A stretch of 64,000 nucleotides of DNA, taken from assembly GCF_044324875.1 (NCBI RefSeq), contig NZ_CP172185.1; one strand, given 5' to 3'. Shown piece by piece: positions 1-46,075 of the stretch. The notes beneath the pieces are model-generated. The model saw only the letters and a list, made by a program, of their open reading frames with translations. It had not been told where the DNA came from and did no database searches. Origin of the DNA: Escherichia coli (GTDB lineage Bacteria; Pseudomonadota; Gammaproteobacteria; Enterobacterales; Enterobacteriaceae). The position numbers and the translations under genes were made by a program. Position 1 is the first letter of the stretch, and every line of letters starts with the position of its first letter.

Positions 1-117
1 CAAAATGAAGGCCGGTGACCAGATACCACAGTTGAACGATAAACAGAAACCTGCTGATAAAACACCGTGGCGACATGACAAAACGCCAGAGCAAAAACCG
101 TAAGCGCATTATTCGTC

Positions 118-420
118 TTGTGGAACTCTGGCCTGAGTCATTCAACCGGGAAAAAAACAAAACCACTTAAAGTGGGGATACCTGACGACCTGATACAGGA
201 TATCGCCATCCGAGAACTGGCGTTTGGCGCTGGTACATTACATGCAGCAGTGGCGTCTTATGTGCAGTCTCCGCGCTATTACCGTGCGTTAATAGCAGGT
301 GGCGCCCGTTACAACCTGAACGGTCAGCCGTGCGGGGAAGTGACACCACAGGAACAGAAAGAGGCAGAGACCCGTTTAATGATGCTGAATGACCGACGAA
401 AAGACAGAAAACCTCGTTGA
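118..420 (+). CDS. hypothetical protein (island-borne)
   Basis: 100-aa ORF from the six-frame track; begins with TTG, no ATG near the 5' end; no family recognised; opposite strand to neighbouring island genes. Confidence 0.25.
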   Translation: MWNSGLSHSTGKKTKPLKVGIPDDLIQDIAIRELAFGAGTLHAAVASYVQSPRYYRALIAGGARYNLNGQPCGEVTPQEQKEAETRLMMLNDRRKDRKPR

Positions 421-437
421 CTGCACAACAGCGCTGT

Positions 438-1190
438 TCACTGAGCTGTAATCAATGTACAGCGCTGTACCGGGCGATGGGTAATACCGGTCACAACCGG
501 TAACCCCAGAGACAATGCAACTGTTTTTAACGCAATATACTGGCCGGATGTATCACCCCGGGCAGCCTGAAAACACCTTTCCACCCGGCATTGTCCGTCA
601 GCACTTATCACCCGCCATGTCTGTTGCAATAAATCCACCCGTTGCGAACATTCTTCATCAACCGTGGCACTGACCCGTGGATGGCAAATGCTCGTCTGGC
701 TGAGCAGCAACAGGCATCGCATTGTTGCTCCTCCATGTTGTTCCCGCAACCAGCGTAATACCACCGGTGGTGCTGGACTGGCCGTGTGATTACGTTCAGT
801 AATACGCTCGTGCACCTGTCGGTAAAAGGAAGTACAGAATGCATGAATCTGTTGTCCGTTGATGTTTCCTTCTGCCGAATGGAGTGTGAAGTGGACGGCC
901 AGCAGACGCGGCCAGTGATCCACCGCCTGCTGAATAAAACGCCGGATTTCCACCGGCTCTGAAAGTACGGTTTCGGTTATTTGCACGATTTGATCCCCTT
1001 GAATGTTGCTGAACCGGTGTCGGTACGCAGGAAAGCACGCCGAGACCGGTACGATGCCTGTTACAGCGAAGAACGAGGAATGACAGACGGGGGCAGCAGG
1101 TCGCCAGCACCAGGGACAGGGCTGATTTCCACAATACCAACGCTGGTATTTTGCACATTGCCAGCGTACCGGCATTACAACACGTTTCAT
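438..1190 (-). CDS. putative YfjJ/YagK-like (inovirus Gp2-type) island protein
   Basis: ORF 438..1232 trimmed to the ATG at 1190, which overlaps the alpA stop in an ATGA arrangement (possible translational coupling). Weak resemblance to the two paralogs at 1492-3152 (HFTLH..., ...CLLLLS). Family assignment is tentative. Confidence 0.4.
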   Translation of the reverse strand: MKRVVMPVRWQCAKYQRWYCGNQPCPWCWRPAAPVCHSSFFAVTGIVPVSACFPAYRHRFSNIQGDQIVQITETVLSEPVEIRRFIQQAVDHWPRLLAVHFTLHSAEGNINGQQIHAFCTSFYRQVHERITERNHTASPAPPVVLRWLREQHGGATMRCLLLLSQTSICHPRVSATVDEECSQRVDLLQQTWRVISADGQCRVERCFQAARGDTSGQYIALKTVALSLGLPVVTGITHRPVQRCTLITAQ

Positions 1191-1423
1191 GCGGCGACTC
1201 CCCGTGATGCTTCGATGCGCTGCTGCATCCACTGCTCCACTTCGCTTCTGTACCAGCGGCTGCTGCGGCCCAGTTTGATGGGTTTAGGGAAATGGCCTTC
1301 ACTGATCAGCTTGTAAAACCATTTGTCGGTCATACCAGTGAAGCTGGTGATGTAGTTCATGTCGATCAGGGGATCGTCGGCACGCAGCAATACGCTGTCG
1401 TGACCTGTCATTGAGGTCAACAT
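1187..1423 (-). CDS. alpA: AlpA-family prophage transcriptional regulator
   Basis: 78-aa protein with the C-terminal region FTGMTDKWFYKLISEGHFPKPIKLGRSSRWYRSEVEQWM, typical of AlpA/CP4-57 regulatory proteins; start may be an internal Met. Confidence 0.7.
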   Translation of the reverse strand: MLTSMTGHDSVLLRADDPLIDMNYITSFTGMTDKWFYKLISEGHFPKPIKLGRSSRWYRSEVEQWMQQRIEASRGVAA

Positions 1424-1491
1424 GGTCAGAATGTCCTCTGTGAGATTTATGAATGTTGGGCAAATGCGGGTGAATCTGCTGAGCTGAGCTT

Positions 1492-2064
1492 TCAGAGCTG
1501 GCCTGCTACGGGATACCAGGGATTACCGGCGAGGTAACGGGCTTCCGGATCGCGCACACCACGACGATCGCGGGCGAAATCACTGAACGCCCATATCAGC
1601 TCTTTGAGTCTCTCTTCGCAGTCCGGTGAACGGGGATCCAGCAGCACATCCCGGGTAATCTGCTTCTGGTACGGTGCCGCTTCACCCGGTGACGCGAAGC
1701 CCAGTACGTTGCTCCAGGCATCCAGAATCAGCCGATCCAGTTCAGGGCCGTCGAAATATTCCTCCCTGACGCACAGCACCACGTGGTATTCCGGTTTTTC
1801 AGGATGACGAGTCAGGAGCCAGCAGAGATCACGTCCGGGGGTTGCATTCATCAGCGCACTGACGGTTTCGATAAAGGCCATACCGAACCAGGTTTTTCTG
1901 TCGCTGAAGATGTTGCCATGTTCCCCCGGCAGACGAAGCAGGATCCGCCGTATTCGGGAGCAGGGCTGCTCACGCAGCGCACGCTCAAGGACACCGATAA
2001 CTTTGCTCTGATAAGATGGCCAGAAGGGCGCCATGCTATAGTCGAAATAAGGGATAGCATTCAT
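1492..2064 (-). CDS. YfjJ/YagK-family paralog, probably N-terminally degenerate
   Basis: ORF 1492..2094 (TTG start); first ATG at 2064 gives MNAIPYF..., alignable to MNQPIH... of the paralog at 2421..3152. The conserved leader element lies about 160 bp further upstream (2231-2261) with no in-frame ATG in between. Confidence 0.4.
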   Translation of the reverse strand: MNAIPYFDYSMAPFWPSYQSKVIGVLERALREQPCSRIRRILLRLPGEHGNIFSDRKTWFGMAFIETVSALMNATPGRDLCWLLTRHPEKPEYHVVLCVREEYFDGPELDRLILDAWSNVLGFASPGEAAPYQKQITRDVLLDPRSPDCEERLKELIWAFSDFARDRRGVRDPEARYLAGNPWYPVAGQL

Positions 2065-2230
2065 AAGATATGTTCCGTTATACGCAGCCCACAACGCGTC
2101 CTGCCCGTGGATGCGCTGACGTGTTATGGCTTGCGTATGGGGTTGATGGAATAAGTGAAAAACCGCGGCAGAACGGGAAGATCAGGTAACCGACAAGGGA
2201 CAGAACACCGGATGCAGGTTCAGAATGAAT

Positions 2231-2261
2231 GATCTCCGTTGACTTCGGTTCACATCATTAA
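2231..2261. repeat. conserved leader element, copy A (GATCTCCGTTGACTTCGGTTCACATCATTAA)
   Basis: Direct repeat of the element at 3160-3195; the shared core GATCTCCGTTGA...TTCACATCATTAA is visible in the sequence. Confidence 0.6.
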
Positions 2262-2420
2262 GCAGGACAGTAAGGTTTTACCGACGGAGTGTTTCCAGGA
2301 GCGAAAGCAGAGAAAAATACCGTTGCATGACTTCAGGACGACTTTTTCAGAAAACGAGCTAAGGGCGTCAGCCAACGTCCTGTAGCATAAGCTCAGGCAC
2401 CGGATGTCGTTTTACAGGGC

Positions 2421-3152
2421 TCACCTGCCATCCAGTAGACGCCCCGGCCCACGACTGCAACCATAATTACGTTGCCCGGAACCGTTATGCAACTTCGTTT
2501 CATATTTCACGAGATAACTGGCTCTGTTCCGGGCTTTCTGCATCGCTTCCACATCACCACGCTTGACCCAGAGCACAGCGGATTCACCCGGCTTTTTGTC
2601 TGAAGCCTTCCTGGTATCAGAACATCCACCCGACAAAGGCGTATCATCGGAAGAAGGGCGAGCATCAGATGATGTCGGTTTACGGAAAGGCGTCCGCCTG
2701 GAAAAATGAACCAGTCCATTACCCTGCCAGGGCTCAAGATGCAGAGCACTACACCATGCCAGCTTGATCAGTGTCGCCAGCGAAGAAGGAACGGTGAAAT
2801 CCCCTGGCGAGCACCAGGTATCTTTGTTGAGCAGCAATATCACGTGATAATGTTTCCTGCCTTTTTCCTTGCCAAACTCCCGGCACCAGAAATAACGCAG
2901 AGTGGTTGCACGCACACGCTTGTTGGCACGTCGTTTTTTCCGCTGGTAAGCCTGAATTTTGGCTTTCAGGGATGCAAAAAAACGAGAAATCACCGCTGAA
3001 TCCGGATCGGGATCCATGATGGTGACAGGCATATACTCAGGGAAACGTAAATCCACCCGGATTAACGAGACGGCACGGTGCTGCGCCAGGGCACTGTCGA
3101 GAAGGCTGTCAAAACGGGATAACCAGTAAGCATTATGTATTGGTTGATTCAT
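2421..3152 (-). CDS. YfjJ/YagK-family (inovirus Gp2-like) protein
   Basis: 243-aa protein with LIRVDLRFP and HYHVILLLN motifs as remembered for the YagK/YfjJ family of CP4-type islands; GGAG ribosome-binding site about 10 nt upstream of the ATG on the minus strand. Confidence 0.55.
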   Translation of the reverse strand: MNQPIHNAYWLSRFDSLLDSALAQHRAVSLIRVDLRFPEYMPVTIMDPDPDSAVISRFFASLKAKIQAYQRKKRRANKRVRATTLRYFWCREFGKEKGRKHYHVILLLNKDTWCSPGDFTVPSSLATLIKLAWCSALHLEPWQGNGLVHFSRRTPFRKPTSSDARPSSDDTPLSGGCSDTRKASDKKPGESAVLWVKRGDVEAMQKARNRASYLVKYETKLHNGSGQRNYGCSRGPGRLLDGR

Positions 3153-3159
3153 GATGAGA

Positions 3160-3195
3160 GATCTCCGTTGATTTGGATTGACTTCACATCATTAA
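3160..3195. repeat. conserved leader element, copy B (GATCTCCGTTGATTTGGATTGACTTCACATCATTAA)
   Basis: Immediately 5' of the 2421..3152 start codon on the minus strand (contains its GGAG ribosome-binding site); on the plus strand it contains TTGATT-17 bp-ATTAAT, a promoter-like arrangement. Confidence 0.6.
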
Positions 3196-4282
3196 TCACC
3201 GCAGTAAAACTTTACGGCGTCCTGTCATTAAGCAACACCAGTGGCTCCTGATTAGAACAGAATGAGTTTCCCACGAACAAAAAGACAAACCTACACGCAG
3301 GGTAAAAACACGCAACAACAGCATGAATGGATTTGAAAACAATATGGATGACGAAAAATGTCAAAAGTGAAACGGATCAACAGAACGTGCAAACAAAACG
3401 TCAGAAACGCAATCAGAGCACTTTCTGGCGCTGTGAATCAACAACAACACCAAAACCTACAGCTTAACCACATTACTCAATCACGAATGCGAATGACACG
3501 TTTAAAACCTGTTTACAGATAACGCCGTAACACGATCATCCCCATCACCATCAGAATCGATTTTCTCATCCCGAAAATGTTACGTTTCACTACGCACCAT
3601 AAAAACGATTAACCATCGATAACGTAAATCTCATCTGAATCAAAAAACCAAAACCAATCATCACACTTTCGCAATGCAAGAAGAAAAACCACATCATGAC
3701 GAAAACAATGACCTTACATGAAAAAGCAAAACGTCAGGAATCGTTAATGCCTCAATCTGATTGTTATCAAAACATCCAGAAAGTCGTTTAACAGAATCGT
3801 CGTAAGCACATCGAAAAGAACGTCAGATCACCTCAGGAAAGTTCGGGTTGATTTAGCGTAAAGATACTTTTCTCAGCTTAACGTCGAAACACAAACCAAA
3901 AACCACAAACAACCAAAGCTCAGGAAAGGTTAAACGTCACATCAGTAAAATCGAATAGCAGATTGATTGCTTAAACAGAAAGGTTTTACAGCAGCTTTAA
4001 ACTGATTTTAGCTAACGTAAAGATTTACTAAACTGGATGAGTTTCAGACAAAGCAATGTGTACAGCAATGCTTAATGAAAACACTTATAGGGCTGTTTAT
4101 GAAAACACGTGTATGTCTGGTAAAACACTTAGTAGAAAATACGTGTATAACACTTACTGAAATGCTTAGTAAAAATACTTAGTAAAATATGTAGACTGGC
4201 CCCCTGAATCTCCAGACAACCAGTATCACTTAAATAAGTGATAGTCTTAATACTAGTTTTTAGACTAGTCATTGGAGAACAG

Positions 4283-4648
4283 ATGATTGATGTCTTAGGG
4301 CCGGAGAAACGCAGACGGCGTACCACACAGGAAAAGATCGCAATTGTTCAGCAGAGCTTTGAACCGGGGATGACGGTCTCCCTCGTTGCCCGGCAACATG
4401 GTGTAGCAGCCAGCCAGTTATTTCTCTGGCGTAAGCAATACCAGGAAGGAAGTCTTACTGCTGTCGCCGCCGGAGAACAGGTTGTTCCTGCCTCTGAACT
4501 TGCTGCCGCCATGAAGCAGATTAAAGAACTCCAGCGCCTGCTCGGCAAGAAAACGATGGAAAATGAACTCCTCAAAGAAGCCGTTGAATATGGACGGGCA
4601 AAAAAGTGGATAGCGCACGCGCCCTTATTGCCCGGGGATGGGGAGTAA
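4283..4648 (+). CDS. insC: IS2 transposase OrfA (InsC)
   Basis: [56 protein letters not shown]... matches remembered IS2 InsC (121 aa). Confidence 0.95.
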
Positions 4649-5511
4649 GCTTAGTCAGCCGTTGTCTCCGGGTGTCGCGTGCGCAGTTGCACGTCATTCT
4701 CAGACGAACCGATGACTGGATGGATGGCCGCCGCAGTCGTCACACTGATGATACGGATGTGCTTCTCCGTATACACCATGTTATCGGAGAGCTGCCAACG
4801 TATGGTTATCGTCGGGTATGGGCGCTGCTTCGCAGACAGGCAGAACTTGATGGTATGCCTGCGATCAATGCCAAACGTGTTTACCGGATCATGCGCCAGA
4901 ATGCGCTGTTGCTTGAGCGAAAACCTGCTGTACCGCCATCGAAACGGGCACATACAGGCAGAGTGGCTGTGAAAGAAAGTAATCAGCGATGGTGCTCTGA
5001 CGGGTTCGAGTTCCGCTGTGATAACGGAGAAAAACTGCGAGTCACGTTCGCGCTGGACTGCTGTGACCGTGAGGCACTGCACTGGGCGGTCACTACGGGC
5101 GGCTTCAACAGTGAAACAGTACAGGACGTCATGCTGGGAGCGGTGGAACGCCGCTTCGGCAACGAGCTTCCGGCGTCTCCAGTAGAGTGGCTGACGGATA
5201 ATGGTTCATGCTACCGGGCTAATGAAACACGGCAGTTTGCCCGGATGTTGGGGCTTGAACCGAAGAGCACGGCGGTGCGGAGTCCGGAGAGTAACGGCAT
5301 AGCAGAGAGCTTCGTGAAAACGATAAAGCGTGACTACATCAGTGTCATGCCCAAACCAGACGGGTTAACGGCAGCAAAGAACCTTGCAGAGGCGTTCGAG
5401 CATTATAACGAATGGCATCCGCATAGTGCACTGGGTTATCGCTCGCCACGGGAATATCTACGGCAGCAAGCCAGTAATGGGTTAAGTGATAACAGGTGTC
5501 TGGAAATATAG
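4606..5511 (+). CDS. insD: IS2 transposase OrfB (InsD)
   Basis: 301-aa protein [34 protein letters not shown]... matches remembered IS2 InsD; overlaps insC as in IS2. Confidence 0.95.
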
Positions 5512-6227
5512 GGGCAAATCCAATATGTGTAGAATTATCTATTTAAAAAGATATGTATATAACACTTAATAAAAACATGTGTATATAGTATCATACCGAC
5601 ATTCTCAACATCTTCAGACTTCCATACATACTGGGTGTTGATTTCTCACTTTTACAGCCAGCATGGAGTTTTCTGTCCTAAAAACAGAGCAGATTTACTC
5701 TGGAATTATTTTTCTGCCCCCGTATTTCAGGCCCCAGAAAAGACAATCCGAAGCAAACCGTTTGTCAGCCTCCATATCATCTTTTACCCCCGGAAAGTGA
5801 TCGCGTTTTACAACCAGAATGACAGCCATACTGATTATGTCGTCTCCCGGCCCCCTTCACATATAACATGCATGTCTGTCATTGCTTACTGCTCCACATG
5901 ACCGGATTTCACATACAGGATGCACATTCAGTGTTTTTATCGCCACTATAACAGACAGATTACTGTCGTCTTTACTCTTCAGATTGTTAATCTGACCACA
6001 AGAACAGCCGAACGGCAAAACGCCCTCCACAAGGGGCACATGAACCATAGTTGATAGCATGTTTTTCCTAATCAAGGAATAGTTCAGGAATATTTTATTG
6101 CATTAATAACTGGCGAATAATCGTTCTGTGAACACAAAATGCTTTTATTTGTAAATTTTATTGCATTGCACTCGTTTTATTGATATGGGGTTTAATAACA
6201 GATAACCCGGAAAGAAGGAGAAAACAG

Positions 6228-7019
6228 ATGACATTACGGATTAACGATCAGGGGCGAGATAAACAGAATCAATTTTTATCGAAAAATGGAGAAAATCTGA
6301 ATTCGTTAAAATCGCGTCATGTGCAGGATAGGCATTTACCTGAATGGCTTAAGGATAAAGTTGCAGCATTCTGGTTTTGTCTGGTGATAAAGGATATGAA
6401 AGTGTCAGGGAGCAGTTACTATGAACTTACCATGCAACTTCCCACTTCTGAAGAATCTGTTTGCATCAGTAAGCTGTCATCCTCAACCCATGAGATTCGG
6501 CTGGAGATCATCAGGCGATGGATTGATAGTGTAGCACAGATAGAAACGGAAGCTTTTACTAAAAATCTCGTTGATGCCATCTATAAAAACTGGAAGGAAA
6601 TCGGGAACAAAAACCAGGCTACATGGCTTAAAAAAAATCCGGAACAACTCGAGTGGGCATGGAAATATATTAACATTCGTATTCCCGAGTCACATTTAAC
6701 CTGGTTTTGCCCCGTCAATAACGAAGAGAAACGCATTGCCATCTTAGCATTGCTTAAAATACTGTATCCCGGAGATATACCATGCCAGTACAACGACAAA
6801 GAGTTTCATGTCGGGATCTGCGCTGAAGAACATTTTTACAGAAGAATGCACGACGCTTTCAGAAAACAGTTTATCGACGGGAAAAAAGATAAACGGGTAC
6901 AAATTAACGTAAAGATATCACCGTCCGCAAAAAGCGCTCTGGACAGACTGACCAGAGCGAGGAAAACAACACAGCAGGCTATTCTGGAACAACTGATTCT
7001 GAACGGTAGACTGGATTAA
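6228..7019 (+). CDS. hypothetical protein with a possible C-terminal ribbon-helix-helix-like DNA-binding tail
   Basis: ORF 6180..7019 trimmed to the ATG at 6228, preceded by AAGGAG; AT-rich; C-terminus VQINVKISPSAKSALDRLTRARKTTQQAILEQLI resembles strand-helix RHH motifs (inference). No family recognised. Confidence 0.45.
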   Translation: MTLRINDQGRDKQNQFLSKNGENLNSLKSRHVQDRHLPEWLKDKVAAFWFCLVIKDMKVSGSSYYELTMQLPTSEESVCISKLSSSTHEIRLEIIRRWIDSVAQIETEAFTKNLVDAIYKNWKEIGNKNQATWLKKNPEQLEWAWKYINIRIPESHLTWFCPVNNEEKRIAILALLKILYPGDIPCQYNDKEFHVGICAEEHFYRRMHDAFRKQFIDGKKDKRVQINVKISPSAKSALDRLTRARKTTQQAILEQLILNGRLD

Positions 7020-8002
7020 CTTTCACTACTTCCACTCCTGGCAGTTTTCCTCTTTTTGTAGTGTCTCCCGGCTGCAGGCATCAGGTACTTTTCCGTCATT
7101 TCGTTGCAGAACTCTTCAATGTAGTTAATCAGCTTCTGGTGTGCTTTCACCTTTTCTTCCCCGGGGGACGCTTTCAGATAAATGTCCTCCTTTTCCACAA
7201 GTGTATTTATAAACTCTCCCGGACATCCCTGGTTATAAAGCAACGTGAAAAACAACACATTCCCCAGTCTCTCCAGTAACTGCGATTTAACCCTGTATTG
7301 TTGTTTGCTGAGGATTGATTGTTTTATAAAGCTTAGTCTTGTTAAAAGTTGTTCAAATCCCGGTTCCAGTTTAAAAACAGATTTTAATACCAGGGACTGA
7401 TACTCCTGATAAAAAAGTTCAAACGTCGGGGATGCAGACTGACGAACAGATTTGGCTACAACCCATGGACTAAATCCCATGATTGGGATTTCCTTCGCTC
7501 CCTCCAGCGCACTCAGAGGTAGTCCAGCAATCCATGCGTCCAGCTTAGCCGAATCAATATCCCCGCTCAAAACCTCATACAAACTGCCCGTGAACGGTTG
7601 AGTCGGTTTTTTTGTTGTTTTACCTTCTGATTGCCTGAATCCATCCACTTTTCTCCGGATATTACGCGGAATCAGCATAAAAGGCGGGACATTAAGTGAT
7701 AAACGTTTACCCGTCATACGATACCAGTGGCCCACCTCAACCTTAATCCGTGTATCTGGCCTTGTATCTGGCCTTGTATCTGGCCTTAGCTCAAGTGCTA
7801 TTATGTTAAGCAGGTACAGATAACGCACCGTATAACAGTCAAAATGTTTCTCCGGATCAAACGGCTCTGATCGTTCTCTGCACACAAGTCCGCTGCGCTT
7901 CAGTATTCGCTGGGTATCTTTCCAGGCCTTACTCTGAAGAATGGTGGTAACTCTGGCTTTATTAGCAATCTCACGCAGCGCATCACTTTGTTGTGCCGTC
8001 AT
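7016..8002 (-). CDS. hypothetical protein containing a tandem (RPDT)x3 repeat
   Basis: ORF 7016..8017 trimmed to the ATG at 8002, preceded by GGAGG; AT-rich; 12-bp unit repeated three times at 7752-7787; convergent with and overlapping the 3' end of 6228..7019 by 4 bp. Confidence 0.45.
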   Translation of the reverse strand: MTAQQSDALREIANKARVTTILQSKAWKDTQRILKRSGLVCRERSEPFDPEKHFDCYTVRYLYLLNIIALELRPDTRPDTRPDTRIKVEVGHWYRMTGKRLSLNVPPFMLIPRNIRRKVDGFRQSEGKTTKKPTQPFTGSLYEVLSGDIDSAKLDAWIAGLPLSALEGAKEIPIMGFSPWVVAKSVRQSASPTFELFYQEYQSLVLKSVFKLEPGFEQLLTRLSFIKQSILSKQQYRVKSQLLERLGNVLFFTLLYNQGCPGEFINTLVEKEDIYLKASPGEEKVKAHQKLINYIEEFCNEMTEKYLMPAAGRHYKKRKTARSGSSES

Positions 8003-8108
8003 CTCTTCCCTCCACACTTTGTCACTCCAGATTTTTTCACGTCCATATTACCTGAATGATAAACCGGATTAGTGTGATCCGGTTCAGCGAAATCAACAGG
8101 ATACCGGT

Positions 8109-8993
8109 ATGTCATTCAGCCATTCTTCCCTCTCTGCACAAGTGAAATCATATCTGACGTTTCTTCCTGAAGAAATTCGCCAGAAAATCCTTGAACATCT
8201 CCACGGTGTTATTCATTACGAGCCCGTGATTGGCATTATGGGTAAATCCGGCACAGGCAAAAGCAGCCTGTGTAATGCCATTTTTCAGTCCCATATCTGC
8301 GCCACGCATCCCCTGAACGGCTGCACCCGCCAGGCTCATCACCTCACCCTGCAGATCGGTGAACGCAGAATGACGCTGGTCGATCTGCCCGGCATTGGTG
8401 AGACACCGCAGCATGATCAGGAATACCGGGCACTTTATCATCAGTTGCTACCGGAACTGGATCTGATTATCTGGATCCTGCGGGCTGATGAACGTGCGTA
8501 TGCTGCCGATATTGCCATGCATCAGTTTTTACTGAATGAAGATGCCGATCCCTCGCGTTTTCTGTTTGTTCTCAGCCATGCCGATCGCGTGTTTCCTGCT
8601 GAAGAATGGAACGACACAGAAAAATGCCCGTCCCGTCAGCAGGAACTCTCACTGGCGACAGTAACAGCCCGGGTGGCCACCCTGTTCCCGTCATCATTTC
8701 CGGTACTCTCCGTTGCAGCGCCTGTCGGCTGGAATCTTCAGGCACTGGTGTCACTGATGATCCACGCACTGCCACCACAGGCAACCAGCGCGGTTTATTC
8801 GCATATCCGGAATGAAAAGCGCACTGCGCAGGATCAGCAACACGCACAGCAGGCTTTTGGTGACGCCATCGGCCAGAGTTTTGACGCTGCCATTGCCCGG
8901 TTCAGCTTTCCGGCCTGGATGCTGCAGCTTCTGCGCAAAGCCCGTGATCGCATTATCCGCCTGCTGATCACACTGTGGGATCGCCTGTTCTGA
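8109..8993 (+). CDS. YeeP/YkfA/YfjP-family GTPase (50S ribosome-binding GTPase domain)
   Basis: P-loop GIMGKSGTGKSSLCNA and DLPG motif; layout as remembered for YkfA/YfjP/YeeP of CP4 islands. Full length here (294 aa). Confidence 0.7.
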   Translation: MSFSHSSLSAQVKSYLTFLPEEIRQKILEHLHGVIHYEPVIGIMGKSGTGKSSLCNAIFQSHICATHPLNGCTRQAHHLTLQIGERRMTLVDLPGIGETPQHDQEYRALYHQLLPELDLIIWILRADERAYAADIAMHQFLLNEDADPSRFLFVLSHADRVFPAEEWNDTEKCPSRQQELSLATVTARVATLFPSSFPVLSVAAPVGWNLQALVSLMIHALPPQATSAVYSHIRNEKRTAQDQQHAQQAFGDAIGQSFDAAIARFSFPAWMLQLLRKARDRIIRLLITLWDRLF

Positions 8994-9102
8994 ATGTCCC
9001 CGCTTTTTGACCGGCCCCGGCGATAACCAGGAAACGCATTTCCGGTTGCGTCACCACAATGCTGAAGGGCTTCGGTAAACCCTCATTCATTTCATCCATC
9101 AG

Positions 9103-9133
9103 GCCGCGTCTTCTCCGTGAGACGCGGCTTTTT
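9103..9133 (+). terminator. putative intrinsic terminator downstream of the GTPase gene
   Basis: GCCGCGTC-loop-GACGCGGC stem followed by TTTTT. Confidence 0.55.
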
Positions 9134-9178
9134 CATTGATTACGTCATTCAGTCTTAACCACTGATAAGGAGCAAAGT

Positions 9179-9997
9179 ATGCGATTAGCCAGTCGTTTTG
9201 GTTATGCGAACCAGATACGCCGTGACCGTCCGCTGACCCGTGAAGAGCTGATGCACCATGTGCCCGGGATTTTCGGGGAAGATAAACACACCTCCCGGAG
9301 CCGGAACTATACATACATCCCCACCATCACCGTGCTGGAAAGCCTGCAGCGGGAAGGCTTTCAGCCATTCTTCGCCTGCCAGACCCGCGTACGTGACCCG
9401 GGTCGCCGGGGGTATACCAAACACATGCTGCGTCTGCGCCGTGACGGGGAGATAAACGGACAACATGTCCCTGAAATTATTCTGCTCAACTCTCATGACG
9501 GTACCTCCAGCTACCAGATGCTGCCGGGTTACTTCAGGTTCGTCTGCCAGAACGGATGCGTCTGCGGTCAGTCTCGGGGGGAAGTGCGTGTTCCGCACCG
9601 GGGAAATGTGGTGGACAGAGTCATTGAAGGGGCTTACGAGGTGGTGGGCGTGTTTGACCGGATAGAGGAGAAGCGTGATGCCATGCAGTCGCTGGTCCTG
9701 CCGCCACCGGCACGCCAGGCGCTGGCACAGGCGGCACTGACTTACCGTTATGGTGACGAACATCAGCCCGTCACCACCGCCGACATTCTGACACCACGAC
9801 GCCGGGAGGATTACGGTAAGGACCTGTGGAGTGCTTATCAGACCATCCAGGAGAATATGCTGAAAGGCGGGATTTCCGGTCGCAGTGCAAAAGGAAAACG
9901 TATCCATACCCGGGCCATTCACAGCATTGATACCGATATAAAACTCAACCGCGCATTGTGGGTGATGGCAGAAACGCTGCTGGAGAGCATGCGCTGA
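9179..9997 (+). CDS. DUF932-family protein (YfjQ/YafZ-like)
   Basis: 272-aa protein in the position and with the general sequence character of YafZ/YfjQ homologues that follow the GTPase in CP4-type islands. Confidence 0.6.
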   Translation: MRLASRFGYANQIRRDRPLTREELMHHVPGIFGEDKHTSRSRNYTYIPTITVLESLQREGFQPFFACQTRVRDPGRRGYTKHMLRLRRDGEINGQHVPEIILLNSHDGTSSYQMLPGYFRFVCQNGCVCGQSRGEVRVPHRGNVVDRVIEGAYEVVGVFDRIEEKRDAMQSLVLPPPARQALAQAALTYRYGDEHQPVTTADILTPRRREDYGKDLWSAYQTIQENMLKGGISGRSAKGKRIHTRAIHSIDTDIKLNRALWVMAETLLESMR

Positions 9998-10088
9998 TGC
10001 TGTTTCCCTGAAAGTGCAGCCCTGACTCACGTCTGTACCAGTCCCCAGGCATTCTTCCATTCATTTACTTTTTATAAGGAATCATCTC

Positions 10089-10574
10089 ATGACAACCTTT
10101 TCGCATAGCTCCACCACACCTTCTGTTTCCGCAACTACTGCATCAGGGAATAACCAGTCTCAACTGGTTGCCACTCCCGTCCCTGATGAACAGCGCATCA
10201 GCTTCTGGCCGCAGCACTTTGGCCTCATTCCACAGTGGGTGACCCTGGAGCCCCGTGTCTTCGGCTGGATGGACCGTCTGTGCGAAGACTACTGCGGTGG
10301 TATCTGGAATCTGTACACCCTGAACAACGGCGGGGCATTTATGGCCCCCGAACCGGATGATGATGATGACGAAACATGGGTACTGTTCAATGCCATGAAC
10401 GGTAACCGCGCTGAAATGAGCCCGGAAGCCGCCGGCATTGCCGCCTGTCTGATGACGTACAGTCATCACGCCTGCCGTACGGAGTGTTATGCCATGACGG
10501 TTCATTATTACCGTCTGCGGGATTACGCCCTGCAGCATCCGGAATGCAGCGCCATTATGCGCATCATTGACTGA
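10089..10574 (+). CDS. antirestriction protein (ArdB/KlcA-like; YfjX/YafX family)
   Basis: 161-aa acidic protein (DDDDDETW...), position between the DUF932 gene and the radC-like gene as in K-12 CP4 islands. Confidence 0.6.
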   Translation: MTTFSHSSTTPSVSATTASGNNQSQLVATPVPDEQRISFWPQHFGLIPQWVTLEPRVFGWMDRLCEDYCGGIWNLYTLNNGGAFMAPEPDDDDDETWVLFNAMNGNRAEMSPEAAGIAACLMTYSHHACRTECYAMTVHYYRLRDYALQHPECSAIMRIID

Positions 10575-10589
10575 AAGGGGGCCGGAACA

Positions 10590-11066
10590 ATGCAACAGAT
10601 TTCCTTTCTGCCCGGAGAAATGACAACCAGAGAGCGCAGCCTCATTCAGCGGGCCCTGAAAGCCCTGGACCGCCATCTTCATGAACCCGGCGTGGCCTTC
10701 ACCTCCACGCATGCGGCACGGGAATGGCTGATTCTGAACATGGCGGGACTGGAGCGTGAAGAATTCCGGGTGCTGTATCTGAACAACCAGAATCAGCTGA
10801 TTGCCGGTGAAACCCTCTTCACCGGCACCATCAACCGCACGGAAGTCCATCCCCGGGAAGTGATTAAACGCGCCCTGTACCACAATGCCGCTGCCGTGGT
10901 GCTGGCGCACAATCACCCGTCCGGTGAAGTCACACCCAGCAAGGCAGACCGCCTTATCACGGAACGTCTGGTACAGGCGCTGGCCCTGGTGGATATCCGG
11001 GTGCCGGACCATCTGATAGTCGGTGGCAGCCAGGTTTTCTCCTTTGCCGAACATGGTCTGCTTTAA
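10590..11066 (+). CDS. RadC-like JAB-domain protein (YeeS/YkfG/YfjY family)
   Basis: JAMM motif region HNHPSGEVTPSKADRLITERL typical of RadC-like proteins. Confidence 0.75.
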   Translation: MQQISFLPGEMTTRERSLIQRALKALDRHLHEPGVAFTSTHAAREWLILNMAGLEREEFRVLYLNNQNQLIAGETLFTGTINRTEVHPREVIKRALYHNAAAVVLAHNHPSGEVTPSKADRLITERLVQALALVDIRVPDHLIVGGSQVFSFAEHGLL

Positions 11067-11128
11067 CCCGTCACAACCACATCACACCTGTTTTCACTTT
11101 TATCTTCTGTCTTCAGAGGTATCCCATT

Positions 11129-11350
11129 ATGAAAATCATCACCCGTGGTGAAGCCATGCGTATTCACCAACAGCATCCTGCATCCCGTCTTTTTCCGTTC
11201 TGTACCGGCAAATACCGCTGGCACGGTGGCACTGAAGCGTATACCGGTCGTGAAGTGCAGGATATTCCCGGTGTGCTGGCCGTGTTTGCAGAACGCCGTA
11301 AGGACAGTTTTGGTCCGTATGTCCGGCTGATGAGCGTCACCCTGAACTGA
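11129..11350 (+). CDS. DUF987-family protein (YeeT/YkfH-like)
   Basis: 73-aa protein in the conserved position between the radC-like gene and the CbeA/CbtA module. Confidence 0.6.
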   Translation: MKIITRGEAMRIHQQHPASRLFPFCTGKYRWHGGTEAYTGREVQDIPGVLAVFAERRKDSFGPYVRLMSVTLN

Positions 11351-11364
11351 GTCAGGGCATTCTG

Positions 11365-12009
11365 ATGAGCAGAATTATCACCATCACAGTGTATACGCTG
11401 GATGAACTTTCCTGCCCGGCACGGGAAAAAGCCCGCGACGGGTACCGTCAGCATCATGCTGACAGCAGCTGGTATGAAAACGTGTATGAGGACTTCAGGG
11501 CGGTCTGTGACATTGTCGGGATTGCCCTCCGCCAGCGAGTTATCCGGCTCAGCAGCGGCAGGTTTATGGAAGAGCCGTGCATCTGGTTCAGCGGCTTCAG
11601 CAGCCAGGGGGACGGAGCCTGTTTTGACGGGCGCTGGCACTGGCAGCCGGCAACAGCCAGGAAAATCCGGGAATATGCCCCGCAGGACCGTGAGCTTCAT
11701 CGTATCGCGGATGCCCTGCAGGCGGTGCAGAAGCGTAACTTCCGGCAGCTTCAGGCTGAAATCCGCCACCGGGGACGCTACTGCCATCCGTACAGCATGG
11801 ATATCACCGTCACCCGGGACAGTCCGACTGGTCAGGCTATGACAGCCGATGCGGAAGCCGCTGTCAGCGAAGCCCTGCGCGACCTGGCCTTCTGGCTGTA
11901 CCGTCAACTGGAAAACGAGTACGACCAGATGACCTCAGACGCCGCTGTGGATGAGGCCATTCTCATCAATGCATACATCTTCACCGAAACCGGTCAGCGC
12001 ACCGGCTGA
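11365..12009 (+). CDS. hypothetical protein (214 aa) between DUF987 and cbeA
   Basis: Plus-strand ORF with mixed, protein-like composition. The competing minus-strand ORF 11164..11907 is Pro/Ala/Arg/Gly-rich, as expected of an antisense artefact in GC-rich DNA. No family recognised. Confidence 0.45.
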   Translation: MSRIITITVYTLDELSCPAREKARDGYRQHHADSSWYENVYEDFRAVCDIVGIALRQRVIRLSSGRFMEEPCIWFSGFSSQGDGACFDGRWHWQPATARKIREYAPQDRELHRIADALQAVQKRNFRQLQAEIRHRGRYCHPYSMDITVTRDSPTGQAMTADAEAAVSEALRDLAFWLYRQLENEYDQMTSDAAVDEAILINAYIFTETGQRTG

Positions 12010-12058
12010 CCTGTCATCGTTAAACCATTCTTAACCACTTTTCAGAGAGGATTTTATC

Positions 12059-12427
12059 GTGTCAGACACACTCTCCGGGATAACTCATCCCGACGACAAT
12101 CACGACCGCCCCTGGTGGGGGCTTCCCTGCACAGTGAGGCCCTGTTTTGGCGCCCGTCTGGTGCAGGAGGGTAACCGCCTGCATTACCTTGCCGACCGCG
12201 CCGGCATCAGAGGCCGGTTCAGCGATGCGGATGCATACCATCTGGACCAGGCCTTTCCGCTGCTGATGAAACAACTGGAACTCATGCTCACCAGCGGTGA
12301 ACTGAATCCCCGCCATCAGCATACCGTCACGCTGTATGCAAAAGGGCTGACCTGCGAAGCCGACACCCTCGGCAGTTGTGGTTACGTTTATCTGGCTGTT
12401 TATCCGACGCCCGAAACGAAAAAGTAA
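12059..12427 (+). CDS. cbeA: type IV toxin-antitoxin system antitoxin CbeA (YeeU/YfjZ/YagB family)
   Basis: MSDTLSGITHPDDNHDRPWWGLPCTVRPCFGARLVQEGNRLHYLADRAGIRG... near-identical to remembered K-12 YeeU. Confidence 0.85.
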   Translation: MSDTLSGITHPDDNHDRPWWGLPCTVRPCFGARLVQEGNRLHYLADRAGIRGRFSDADAYHLDQAFPLLMKQLELMLTSGELNPRHQHTVTLYAKGLTCEADTLGSCGYVYLAVYPTPETKK

Positions 12428-12517
12428 ACCACCGGAATAACCTTCTGCTCCGGCCAGGTGTTTTCACCACGCCACTCTCCCCATAATTTAATCTCTCATA
12501 TCAGGAAAATCTTCAGT

Positions 12518-12928
12518 ATGAAATTATTACCCGACACACATGTACGGGAGGCATCGTGCTGCCCGTCTCCCGTCACCATCTGGCAGACACTGCTCATCCG
12601 TCTGCTGGACCAGCACTATGGCCTCACACTGAATGACACACCGTTCGCTGATGAACGTGTGATTGAGCAGCATATTGAGGCCGGCATTTCACTGTGCGAT
12701 GCGGTGAACTTTCTCGTTGAAAAATACGCACTGGTACGTACCGACCAGCCGGGATTCAGCGCAGGAGCCCCGTCGCAGTTAATCAACAGCATCGATATTC
12801 TCCGGGCCCGCCGGGCAACAGGCCTGATGACACGTAATAACTACAGAATGGTAAATAACATTACCCTGGGTAGCATCCGGGGGCGAAACGATGAAACTTT
12901 CCCTGACGCTGGAAGCCGACAGCGTTAA
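12518..12928 (+). CDS. cbtA: type IV toxin-antitoxin system toxin CbtA (YeeV/YkfI/YpjF family)
   Basis: Internal Met of ORF 12458..12928; ...[62 protein letters not shown]... matches remembered YeeV. C-terminus differs from K-12 and overlaps the next gene. Confidence 0.8.
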
Positions 12929-13316
12929 CGTACAGGCGCTGAACATGGGGCGAATTGTCGTTGACATTGATGGTGTTGAGCTCACTGAACTGATTAACAA
13001 GGTCGCTGAAAACGGTTATTCACTCCGCGTGGTGGATGAACGTGACGCTACCGAAACACCGGCGACTTCTGCCAGCTCTCATCAGTTGCCGGAAGACAAT
13101 ACAGTGATACAGAGCGTGATGCCATTAACCACTGAAACAGCGCTGGATATCCTCATTGCGTGGCTGCAGGACAATATCGACTGCGGGTCCGGAATTATTT
13201 TCGACAACGATGAGGATAAAACGGATTCGGCAGCACTGCTGCCCTGTATCGAACAGGCCAGAGCAGATATCCGCACCCTGCGCCAGCTGCAGCAGCTTCT
13301 GCACCAGAACCGGTGA
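12891..13316 (+). CDS. YeeW-like protein (DUF5983)
   Basis: 141-aa ORF immediately after and overlapping cbtA, the position of yeeW in CP4-44. Confidence 0.55.
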
Positions 13317-13343
13317 GTCTCACTCACCACGATTCATTAACCT

Positions 13344-13377
13344 GACGCCAGTCCGAATACGACTGGCGTTTTCATTT
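13344..13377 (+). terminator. putative intrinsic terminator after the yeeW-like gene
   Basis: GACGCCAGTC-loop-GACTGGCGT followed by a T-rich tract. Confidence 0.5.
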
Positions 13378-13399
13378 ATCAGAAAAAAGGGAAACAGTT

Positions 13400-14248
13400 A
13401 TGTCAGACATCACCATCTCCCGTCCGGAAGCGCTTAACGGACATACGGACCTTATCTGCTCCACAGATATCCGGCACGTTGTGACGGTACGGAATGAAGC
13501 ACTGCAACAAACCGAAAGGCTTATCCGGCAACTGGCAGAAATCTCAGCAATGACAGAAAGTATTGGCGGTAAAACTGTCCGGGACTGGGCCGTGAAACAG
13601 GATTTTCGCTGTGGCTGCTGGCTGATGGAAAAACCGGAAACCGCAATGAAAGCCATCACCCGTAACCTTGACCGCGAAATCTGGCGTGACCTGATGCAAC
13701 GCTCCGGGATGCTGAGTCTGATGGATGTACAGACGCGTGATTAATGGTACCGTTCACTGGAGGAGGATAATTTCCCGGAAATCAGCGAAGCGAATATCCT
13801 GAGCACGGCTGAACAACTGCACCGTAACAGGTATGAAATGGCTGAACGCGGCGTCATCAACCTCTTCAGGGGACTGAGCCGGACGCACAACAGCAGGTCA
13901 CCCTGTAAATTCGGCAGTAAGATTATCCTCAACAATCTGGTGAAATGGGACTGGTGGGGATTTGGTCTGAACCATGGTCCGCAGGCCGGGCAGCTTGCCG
14001 ACCTGGAAAGGATACTGTATCAGTTCAGCGGCAAACCCATACCCGATTACAGGGACAATATTATCATTCGTCTGGATGAGCACATCCGGTCCGTTCAGGG
14101 TAAAGCGTGCTATGAGGATGAGATGTTCAGCATCAGATACTTCAGGAAGGGCTCCGCGCATATCACGTTTAAACACCCGGAACTGGTGGAGAAGCTGAAT
14201 GCTGTTCTGGCGAAACATTATTCGGTAAAGTTCCATTCTTCTGTATAA
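13400..14248 (+). pseudogene. DUF4942-family gene interrupted by an in-frame TAA (13742-13744)
   Basis: ORFs 13400..13744 and 13838..14248 are in the same frame and joined by an open in-frame stretch (…WYRSLEEDNFPEISEANILSTAEQLHRNRYE…) apart from the single stop; the DUF4942 assignment is from memory of genes that follow cbtA/yeeW. Confidence 0.5.
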
Positions 14249-14555
14249 ACTTACACATCATGGGTATTGTGTCTCGCCCTGAACAAGGCCGACAGGTATA
14301 CTGCATTCGCTGAGTCATTACAGATAATGCCTCAACTGAGTTCAATCTACCTCCATGTACAACAACAATACGATGGGGGCTACATTGGGGGCTATATTTT
14401 CAAGAAAAACGTATATAGTTCAATTAAATCAATAAACTGAAAAAATTTCACCATTCCCCTCTGGGGAGAGGATTAGGGTGAGGGGCGCAAACCCGCTCCG
14501 GGGCCATTAATTACCCTGAATTTGATTATTTACACCACGGTAACAGGAACAACAT

Positions 14556-15215
14556 ATGCAGTTTGACTGGAGTGCCATCTGGCCTGCCATTCCGCTTCTG
14601 ATTGAAGGTGCCAAAATGACCCTGTGGATTTCGGTCCTCGGTTTGGCTGGCGGTCTGGTGATCGGATTGCTGGCAGGTTTTGCACGCACCTTCGGTGGTT
14701 GGATAGCCAACCACGTCGCGCTGGTCTTTATTGAAGTGATCCGCGGCACACCTATCGTCGTCCAGGTGATGTTTATTTATTTCGCCCTGCCGATGGCGTT
14801 TAACGACTTACGCATCGACCCGTTTACTGCGGCGGTGGTCACCATCATGATCAACTCCGGCGCGTACATTGCGGAAATCACGCGTGGTGCGGTGCTGTCT
14901 ATTCACAAAGGTTTTCGTGAAGCAGGACTGGCGCTCGGTCTTTCACGTTGGGAAACCATTCGCTACGTCATTTTACCGCTGGCACTGCGTCGTATGCTGC
15001 CGCCGCTGGGTAACCAGTGGATCATCAGTATAAAAGATACCTCGCTGTTTATTGTTATCGGCGTGGCGGAACTGACCCGTCAGGGGCAAGAAATTATTGC
15101 CGGTAACTTCCGCGCCCTTGAGATCTGGAGCGCCGTGGCGGTGTTCTATCTGATTATTACCCTGGTGCTGAGCTTTATTCTGCGTCGTCTGGAAAGAAGG
15201 ATGAAAATCCTGTGA
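14556..15215 (+). CDS. glnP: glutamine ABC transporter permease GlnP
   Basis: 219 aa; matches remembered K-12 GlnP. Confidence 0.95.
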
Positions 15216-44935: not shown

Positions 44936-45925
44936 TTAGCCGCCAATGTACGATAAGTTTTGCGTAATACCGGTGTTATTTTGATGCAGGAAATGGGTCT
45001 GTTTCTTCTCCCGCAGCGCCGCTGAAATACGCGCTTCCAGCGCCTGTTGCTGGGTATCGTCTTCCAGCAGATCGCGCAGGTTAACGCCGCCCTCACCAAA
45101 CAGGCAGAGATGGAGTTTACCAATGGAGGAAACGCGCAGGCGGTTGCAAGTGGCGCAGAAGTCTTTTTCATACGGCATGATAAGGCCAATCTCTCCGGCA
45201 TAATCTGGATGGCAAAAGACTTGCGCGGGACCGTCGCTGCGTTGACGTAATTGGTGGATCCAGCCGCGACGCAGTAGCTCGTCACGCAGAACCTGACCAG
45301 AGATGTGATGCTTACGGAAGAGCTCGCTGCCCTCGCCCGTTTCCATCAGTTCGATGAAACGCAGCTGGATGGGACGATGCTGTATCCAGTTCAGAAAGGT
45401 GTCGAGCTGATGATGATTAACATCACGCATCAGCACGGTATTGACTTTGACCTTCTCAAAACCGGCCTCAAATGCAGCATCGATCCCTGCCATGACCTGG
45501 TTGAATTTATCCTGCCCGGTAATAGCGTGAAACTGGCGGGCGTCCAGACTATCAACGCTGACGTTGATGCCAGTAAGTCCAGCATCGCGCCAGTTCGCCA
45601 CATCGCGTTCCAGACGGTAACCATTGGTGGTGACCGCAATCTGGCGGATAGCGTCGTTTTCTCGCACAGCGGCGATGATATCGGTAAAGTCGCGGCGTAA
45701 AGACGGCTCACCACCTGTCAGACGGACTTTTTCGGTGCCCAGACTGGCGAAGGCGCGTGTAACCCGGCGAATTTCATCGACGGTAAGAAAGCCTTTATTG
45801 GTGACGCCGCTCGGTTTGTAGCCATCCGGCAGGCAGTAGGTGCAACGAAAGTTACACACATCGGTAATCGACAGGCGCAAGTAGTAAAACTTACGCGCAA
45901 ATGCATCAGTCAGTTGTGAAGCCAT
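44936..45925 (-). CDS. moaA: GTP 3',8-cyclase MoaA (radical SAM)
   Basis: CNFRCTYC radical-SAM cluster motif; start trimmed to [24 protein letters not shown] (329 aa). Confidence 0.95.
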
Positions 45926-45929
45926 GTAC

Positions 45930-46075
45930 ACCTTTCCAGATACGGGAGGCGAAGTCATTTCTTCCTTCGCCCTGGTGGCAATCTTTACGAGCATTGTCAC
46001 GGCCAAAGCACCGTATCAGTTGACCCAGGTGCAGAGGCTAGAGTGTTTAGTGGTTAAGCCGATACTAGCGCGTAA
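45930..46075 (-). ncRNA. expected molybdenum-cofactor (Moco) riboswitch in the moaA 5' leader
   Basis: Placed by established knowledge that the E. coli moaABCDE leader carries the Moco RNA motif; I did not verify the conserved structure base by base. Confidence 0.45.

Follow-up and report, generated by a model that had tools for sequence, protein, structure and literature searches.

The DUF4942 frame at 13400-14248 of the window (the whole 64,000-nucleotide stretch of Escherichia coli DNA under analysis) is, with high confidence, an ordinary, fixed pseudogene due to an inherited nonsense mutation, and not a natural arrangement of two genes. Translated on the plus strand, this interval gives 283 codons with one internal stop, a TAA at codon 115, whereas a random frame of that length would contain some 13 by chance. 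The two open reading frames (ORFs) delimited mechanically, 13400-13744 (114 aa) and 13838-14248 (136 aa), lie in an identical reading frame, and an earlier note, which had reported two ORFs in one frame with a lone TAA between them, proved exact in all coordinates against the translation and the ORF list (Table 1).

Membership in the Pfam family PF13708 (DUF4942) is defined by an HMM score above the gathering score of 25 bits. With codon 115 repaired to Glu, the window protein belongs to this family by score (202 bits, E 9e-60, aa 87-274). The C-terminal fragment alone reaches 162.6 bits, above the gathering score, and the N-terminal fragment alone 21.3 bits (aa 87-113), under it. The profile is matched collinearly, at positions 1-27 on the 5′ side of the stop and at positions 30-188 on its 3′ side; with GAA at the stop codon in the nearest intact alleles and homologues that are single genes, the reading in the earlier note of a nonsense mutation in a DUF4942-type gene is supported. 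The continuous polypeptide of about 255-295 aa found in the family, an N-terminal helical part followed by the domain, is broken at codon 115. As in a nonsense pseudogene, the stop stands where full-length homologues have a sense codon, and the two sides are collinear with them.

The following course of events would account for these features. A single DUF4942 gene for a protein of about 282 aa would have stood last in a CP4-type module that lies at the right end of a large genomic island. One G>T change at 13742 would have replaced the Glu-115 codon GAA by TAA and thereby inactivated the gene, so that translation begun at the native start ended after 114 residues. This mutation would have arisen once in the island lineage and been inherited during the spread of the island to many chromosomal sites, as part of the ordinary decay of accessory genes that are dispensable, at least in cis, for island maintenance or movement.

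Table 1. Coordinates of the DUF4942 pseudogene and of other features in the window
Feature	Position	Strand	Remarks
cbtA toxin gene	12518..12928	+	1-nt deletion near 12871; Pfam CbtA_toxin
DUF5983/DUF957 fusion ORF	12891..13316	+	141 aa; Pfam DUF5983_N only
Terminator-like hairpin	13344..13370	+	Between the DUF5983/DUF957 fusion ORF and the DUF4942 start; consensus scan
N-terminal DUF4942 fragment	13400..13744	+	114 sense codons and the premature TAA; equals WP_225103084.1
Premature TAA, codon 115	13742..13744	+	G>T at 13742 from ancestral GAA (Glu)
In-frame DUF4942 remainder	13745..14248	+	167 sense codons, fully open, and the native terminal stop (TAA, 14246-14248)
PGAP CDS WP_225103085.1	13757-14248	+	163 aa, CTG start
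First ATG in the remainder	13838	+	Would give 136 aa
Tandem pair TGGGGGCTACATT / TGGGGGCTATATT	14374..14398	+	58-82 bp inside the island end; only two matches in 64 kb
Right junction (attR-like)	14455..14485	.	Core CCCC-TCT-GGGG (14456-14466) and GGGGAGAGGATTAGGGTGAGGGG (14463-14485)
naRNA4	23872-23942		Rfam
ES036	30615-30657		Rfam
Moco riboswitch	45913-46057	-	Rfam

Ancestral state of the gene and translation around the stop

In a megablast search of 5,426 complete E. coli genomes with the 849 nt as query, the DUF4942 gene family was detected in 3,562, and carriers have 2-7 DUF4942 paralogues per genome. The closest intact alleles, those of AR_0085 (WP_053287709.1) and Br_112_kylling (WP_001280451.1), show 94.9% nucleotide identity to the window allele and are each annotated as a single DUF4942 protein of 282 aa. 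Both have GAA in the DNA alignment where the window has TAA, so that a single G>T transversion at 13742, converting Glu115 to a stop, accounts for the lesion. Homologues from E. coli, Salmonella, Citrobacter, Serratia and Enterobacter (1,331 sequences) are almost all about 280-282 aa long, and the nearest cluster representative has 93% protein identity to the window DUF4942 protein. An exhaustive HMMER search over 1.84 billion cluster representatives retrieved 1,989 relatives (representatives of 50%-identity clusters), typically of 255-295 aa, whose alignments span query residues 17-275 or so. With a single protein of 255-295 aa as the typical form among these roughly 2,000 representatives, the ancestral state is one gene. 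The comparison with intact homologues that the earlier note had proposed has thus yielded single genes of about 280 aa, with GAA at codon 115 in the nearest alleles. Homologues laid out as two genes, which would have spoken for a natural two-gene arrangement, are found only among carriers of the same TAA allele, so they do not refute the pseudogene.

The position of the stop within the protein is also informative. In a 67-sequence alignment, the residue-115 column (E32/Q10/D10/K8) belongs to a gap-free block containing M108, D109, R113 and the near-invariant W116, and the block has neither linker nor insertion. A confident AlphaFold2 model built on this alignment (pLDDT 86.7, pTM 0.79) forms one unit, in which residue 115 is placed inside a predicted helix (110-121), with all beta strands and most of the DUF4942 domain downstream. 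The gap-free block and the helix indicate that the break cuts through the fold and not through a domain boundary.

These observations bear on the idea of a functional split gene, in which both polypeptides would be made, the second re-initiated at CTG 13757 or ATG 13838, and kept by selection. Such a gene is highly improbable, because no diverged homologue is split at codon 115 among the roughly 2,000 family representatives, over which one polypeptide is the form found, and because the predicted structure is one compact fold, with the break inside a helix. A Shine-Dalgarno (SD)-like motif, GGAGGAGGA, is indeed present shortly 3′ of the premature stop (13759-13767), but no canonical in-frame start lies 5-12 nt past it, and the scan found no in-frame ATG, GTG or TTG between the stop and 13838. 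The TAATG overlap at 13742-13746 opens a different frame, which closes after 8 codons, and a product from ATG 13838 would omit residues 115-145. It could further be said for a split gene that the downstream frame is open and identical in hundreds of assemblies, that RefSeq holds two CDSs with no pseudogene label and that the C-terminal fragment attains its DUF4942 score unaided. However, the conservation of the C-terminal part is explained by the recency of the mutation, with dN/dS as among intact alleles, although a retained function would account for it as well, and the neighbouring genes are decaying too.

For the interrupted pseudogene, the product from the native start would be a helical fragment of 114 residues covering 27 of the 190 domain positions, and the start-codon scan suggests that the 167 codons of the C-terminal part most probably remain untranslated. 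UAA with a following U is the most efficient termination signal in E. coli. The premature stop is UAA then U, and readthrough is therefore unlikely. Programmed recoding, by which the TAA would be read through or bypassed to give the full-length protein at a regulated low level, has a negligible probability: the frame is clean on either side of the stop, with nothing specific otherwise in favour of recoding, but neither stimulatory structure nor slippery sequence is apparent in 13700-13800, and Glu in the sister alleles marks the stop as derived and lineage-specific rather than a conserved recoding site. Consensus scans of 13000-14700 detected no sigma-70-like promoter, and no terminator-like hairpin besides the one in Table 1.

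Distribution and age of the TAA allele

An allele identical over 849/849 nt, including the TAA, is carried by five complete E. coli genomes, namely strain 135 (China), TUM9803 (Japan), PK-F-10122 (Pakistan), HCM-27C-1 (Viet Nam) and GPEC1040 (USA), most of which have chicken sources. In all five, PGAP annotates two CDSs, WP_225103084.1 and WP_225103085.1, the second being CTG-started as at window position 13757. In a collection of about 15 billion proteins, the exact 114-aa product occurs on 865 contigs (886 sample blocks) and the exact 163-aa product on 859 contigs, and 10/10 further loci inspected by exact look-up have the identical 849 nt. Single-substitution variants of the 114-aa fragment, on 25, 16, 9 and 6 contigs, represent some diversification after the truncation. 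Exact search of the same collection found neither the intact ancestor nor a single-step revertant (E, Q, K, S, L or Y at residue 115).

The earlier note had ascribed the TAA to a recent nonsense mutation or a sequencing error, and of these the nonsense mutation stands. An error of sequencing or assembly as the source of the TAA, in a gene that is really intact, can be practically dismissed, although a single-base difference is a plausible type of error and other frameshift calls occur nearby in some carrier genomes. The allele is identical in five independent complete genomes from five countries and in all ten further loci, its exact truncated product recurs on hundreds of contigs, the corresponding intact protein is absent from the roughly 15 billion sequences, and the change is a substitution rather than a homopolymer indel. 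The allele is public already as two RefSeq fragments, for which a flag as one pseudogene would be more apt.

The description of the mutation as recent holds on one scale and fails on another. By the method of Nei and Gojobori, the window allele gives dN/dS values of 0.17 and 0.22 against the two intact alleles, and the intact pair gives 0.21, so nearly all of the divergence accrued under purifying selection, with no sign of long neutral decay. Downstream of the stop the ratio is 0.13-0.22, not more relaxed than in the rest, and the downstream codons are all still open, consistent with an event that is recent relative to the divergence of the alleles. The allele is, on the other hand, shared beyond one genome, and its origin precedes a considerable dispersal. 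The genes found to the right of the identical allele are glnP (in the window and four other assemblies), fabI, frlR, ygfF, tusA, a phnP-like gene, gldA and an ABC-transporter gene. Given an identical allele beside so many chromosomal genes, one mutation in the island lineage followed by spread is the most parsimonious account, and the TAA mutation predates the dispersal of the island to at least nine chromosomal sites. Chromosomal rearrangement was considered as the origin of the varied right flanks and rejected for GPEC1040, where the island is a clean insertion with an integrase gene at its left end.

The presence of the TAA allele at at least nine sites indicates that an intact copy of DUF4942 in cis is not needed for transfer or integration of the island; the function could be supplied in trans by the paralogues present in each genome. 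The G>T at codon 115 can also serve as a clean marker for the lineage of a single, widely disseminated variant of the island, found mostly in poultry-associated E. coli.

The right end of the island and its surroundings

The module ending in DUF4942 has the order GTPase, DUF932, antirestriction, RadC, DUF987, an unnamed 214-aa ORF, CbeA, CbtA, DUF5983/DUF957 and DUF4942, and Pfam matches, together with the RefSeq annotation of near-identical islands, identify it as a CP4-type right-end module with a CbeA/CbtA type IV toxin-antitoxin pair. The cbeA antitoxin ORF (12059-12427) is intact. Two neighbours of the DUF4942 gene are also damaged. In cbtA the deletion alters and lengthens the C-terminus, giving 136 aa against 125 aa in the aligned intact AR_0085 copy, and PGAP labels the identical cbtA of other genomes 'frameshifted'. 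About 283 nt are deleted in the next gene, as shown by gapped alignment to AR_0085, so that the N-terminal domain of DUF5983 is joined to DUF957; PGAP labels DUF5983 as 'missing C-terminus'. Both lesions are found in all examined carriers of the TAA allele, and with DUF4942 there are three lesions within 1.7 kb. Read from the gene sequences, the right-end module of the island is one in decay.

Several further observations concern the island as a whole. An IS3-family element at 4238-5511, IS2-like, contains a 136-aa HTH_Tnp_1 ORF and a 301-aa rve ORF. The GPEC1040 island is 99.5% identical and aligns in two pieces over 91% of window positions 1-14500; the IS3-family insertion probably accounts for the gap. 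In related island copies there are a cluster for tellurite resistance (ter), an autotransporter peptidase of the S6 family (SPATE), sodC and a YadA-like adhesin, along with sit remnants and numerous IS elements. The island, seen mostly in poultry-associated strains, is a large virulence and fitness island.

Island-free genomes, K-12 among them, are homologous to the window from 14455 onwards, and the right end of the island lies not at a tRNA gene but in what appears to be a BoxC/PIT/TMECO palindromic repeat. The consensus of this repeat is CCCTCNCCC-N3-6-GGGNGAGGG-N3-GGGNGAGGG, with 23 copies in K-12 (PMC4666352). The empty glnH-glnP site of K-12, CCCTCTCCCCTATGGGGAGAGGATTAGGGTGAGGGG, differs from the consensus by one mismatch. 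The window keeps only the two purine blocks as GGGGAGAGGATTAGGGTGAGGGG, the retained right part of the repeat, and the island end takes the place of the left block: the K-12 site reads TTCCCTCTCCCCTATGGGGAGAGGATTAGGGTGAGGGG where the window reads caccaTTCCCCTCTGGGGAGAGGATTAGGGTGAGGGG. At all the other loci the same island end gives the junction ...CCCCT / nTGGGGAGAGGGTTAGGGTGAGGGG, and perfect type-A right halves of the repeat occur at other junctions. The type-A copies at 29′, 66′, 75.5′ and 78′ correspond to fabI, ygfF/bglA, frl and tusA on the K-12 map.

In GPEC1040, where the island spans about 83 kb and is inserted cleanly between yhfS and frlR, its left end carries a tyrosine recombinase gene, and each junction shows the palindromic core CCCC-TyT-GGGGAG. 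The island integrase is WP_138031529.1. Just inside each end there is a tandem TGGGGGCTAYWYT pair, at 14374-14398 in the window and, just upstream of the integrase gene, at 32535-32559 of the GPEC1040 locus (L013). These pairs look like putative arm-type sites for integrase binding. The island appears to be a tyrosine-recombinase island that uses BoxC/TMECO repeats as its attachment sites. In a 2015 study of TMECO repeats, integrases were not seen near them (PMC4666352), and a literature search found no report of island integration into BoxC/TMECO, and none later than that study. This context of the island end has more potential than the DUF4942 stop and is independent of it.

The AR_0085 sister island, with intact DUF4942, ends at a non-BoxC pseudo-site, CACCACTCCCCGCCGGGGAGTG (L002, ~6950-7080), inside a CDS annotated as L-ribulose-5-phosphate 3-epimerase (ula-like), which suggests that the island now and then integrates off target, into a short CCCC-N3-GGGG palindrome. 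The island region of Br_112_kylling that ends at the glnP BoxC site begins on its left at tRNA-Pro, beside yejM and with a different integrase; this arrangement points to an island that is composite or tandem, or else to a rearrangement of the chromosome.

The island in the window lies between glnH, which is outside the window, and glnP, which starts at 14556; the glnHPQ operon is thereby split, and the whole island cuts glnPQ off from the glnH promoters. The same junction between island and glnP is present in 18 of the 5,426 complete genomes. The DUF4942 pseudogene, as the last island gene, is co-oriented with glnP and 307 bp upstream of it, and the scan found no terminator-like site between the two. 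From this layout, expression of glnPQ may be reliant on read-out from the island.

Elsewhere, the window from 41000 to 64000 consists of chromosomal backbone (uvrB, bio operon) and then a prophage with baseplate and glucosyltransferase-domain genes, and the ORFs at about 59-64 kb resemble this phage block. Three RNA elements were assigned by Rfam (Table 1), and no tRNA gene was found in the 64-kb window.

The DUF4942 family and known systems

Several searches for the function of DUF4942 had negative outcomes: a profile search of PDB sequences gave no match, the best Foldseek E-value was 0.44, with no significant similarity to a solved fold, and NCBIfam and PADLOC did not match the protein. In the literature, the term DUF4942 was found in four papers, once in each and never in title or abstract. 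Matches in BFVD and PHROGs are limited to uncharacterised proteins or methyltransferase fusions. Relatives of 468 aa (P0209, P0247) have DUF4942 followed by an MTS-type SAM methyltransferase domain, and the DUF4942 domain is also present in PHROG 6263 ('DNA methyltransferase') and in the viral BFVD entry A0A8S5RG17 ('Type I restriction enzyme'). The 282-aa window protein has no methyltransferase domain, Pfam finding DUF4942 only, and the names 'restriction methylase' and 'restriction endonuclease subunit M' are therefore not applicable to it; the domain shared with the fusions accounts for such names. The methyltransferase fusions of these distant relatives are the one hint at the biochemical role of DUF4942.

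Five residues are invariant in the family according to the 67-sequence alignment (W95, G151, D201, H254 and N267), and all are retained in the window sequence. The near-invariant L159-S160-W161-x-Y-K-T-N166 and F137 are not, the window having LSRTHNSR and A137, and 9 of the 39 highly conserved C-terminal columns are missed by the window protein. The intact sister P0001 shows the same motif losses, and throughout the clade the motif reads LSRTHNSR or LSRTQNSG and F137 is changed to A or S. A compensated frameshift was tried as the source of LSRTHNSR and rejected, since the DNA alignment shows clustered substitutions without indels. On this pattern, the clade-wide loss of the motif suggests functional drift before the nonsense mutation.

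This drift enters into one more alternative, that loss of DUF4942, perhaps along with the cbtA and DUF5983 lesions, was selected and aided the spread of the lineage, or that the clade was non-functional before the stop arose. It is unlikely, although the sequence data fit neutral decay and selected loss alike. The abundance of the TAA allele (about 865 contigs, at least nine sites, no intact twin or revertant on record) can reflect hitch-hiking with a successful island or clone. The lesions are indeed clustered, and the clade, its intact members included, lacks the LSW-YKTN motif and F137, but dN/dS of about 0.2 within the clade argues for purifying selection on the intact alleles. A bolder version, in which DUF4942, the gene beside attR and in distant relatives a partner of DNA methyltransferases, normally restrains or directs the island and its loss accompanied the expansion into BoxC/TMECO sites, is very unlikely, as is its weaker counterpart, that both fragments form a working split protein. 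With the ordinary pseudogene as the preferred reading, the stop in DUF4942 matters little in itself, being one more decayed accessory gene.

In cryptic CP4-type islands of E. coli, accessory genes gather nonsense, frameshift and deletion lesions, and the DUF4942 copy, like cbtA and DUF5983 next to it, is a typical case of such decay, with no material difference. The pseudogene can also be compared with the stand-alone PF13708 proteins of enterobacterial CP4-type islands (WP_053287709.1 and WP_001280451.1; 'Aec79' in one source). After repair, the window protein has the same length and the same C-terminus, and its gene occupies the same last place, after CbeA/CbtA, DUF5983 and DUF957. Unlike these proteins, the window copy has TAA at codon 115 and belongs to a clade without LSW-YKTN. 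The RefSeq records WP_225103084.1 and WP_225103085.1 correspond exactly to the window allele, but are treated there as two proteins and not as the halves of a pseudogene. Finally, the fusions represented by P0209, P0247, PHROG 6263 and A0A8S5RG17 share the DUF4942 domain with the window protein, whereas the methyltransferase domain is theirs only.
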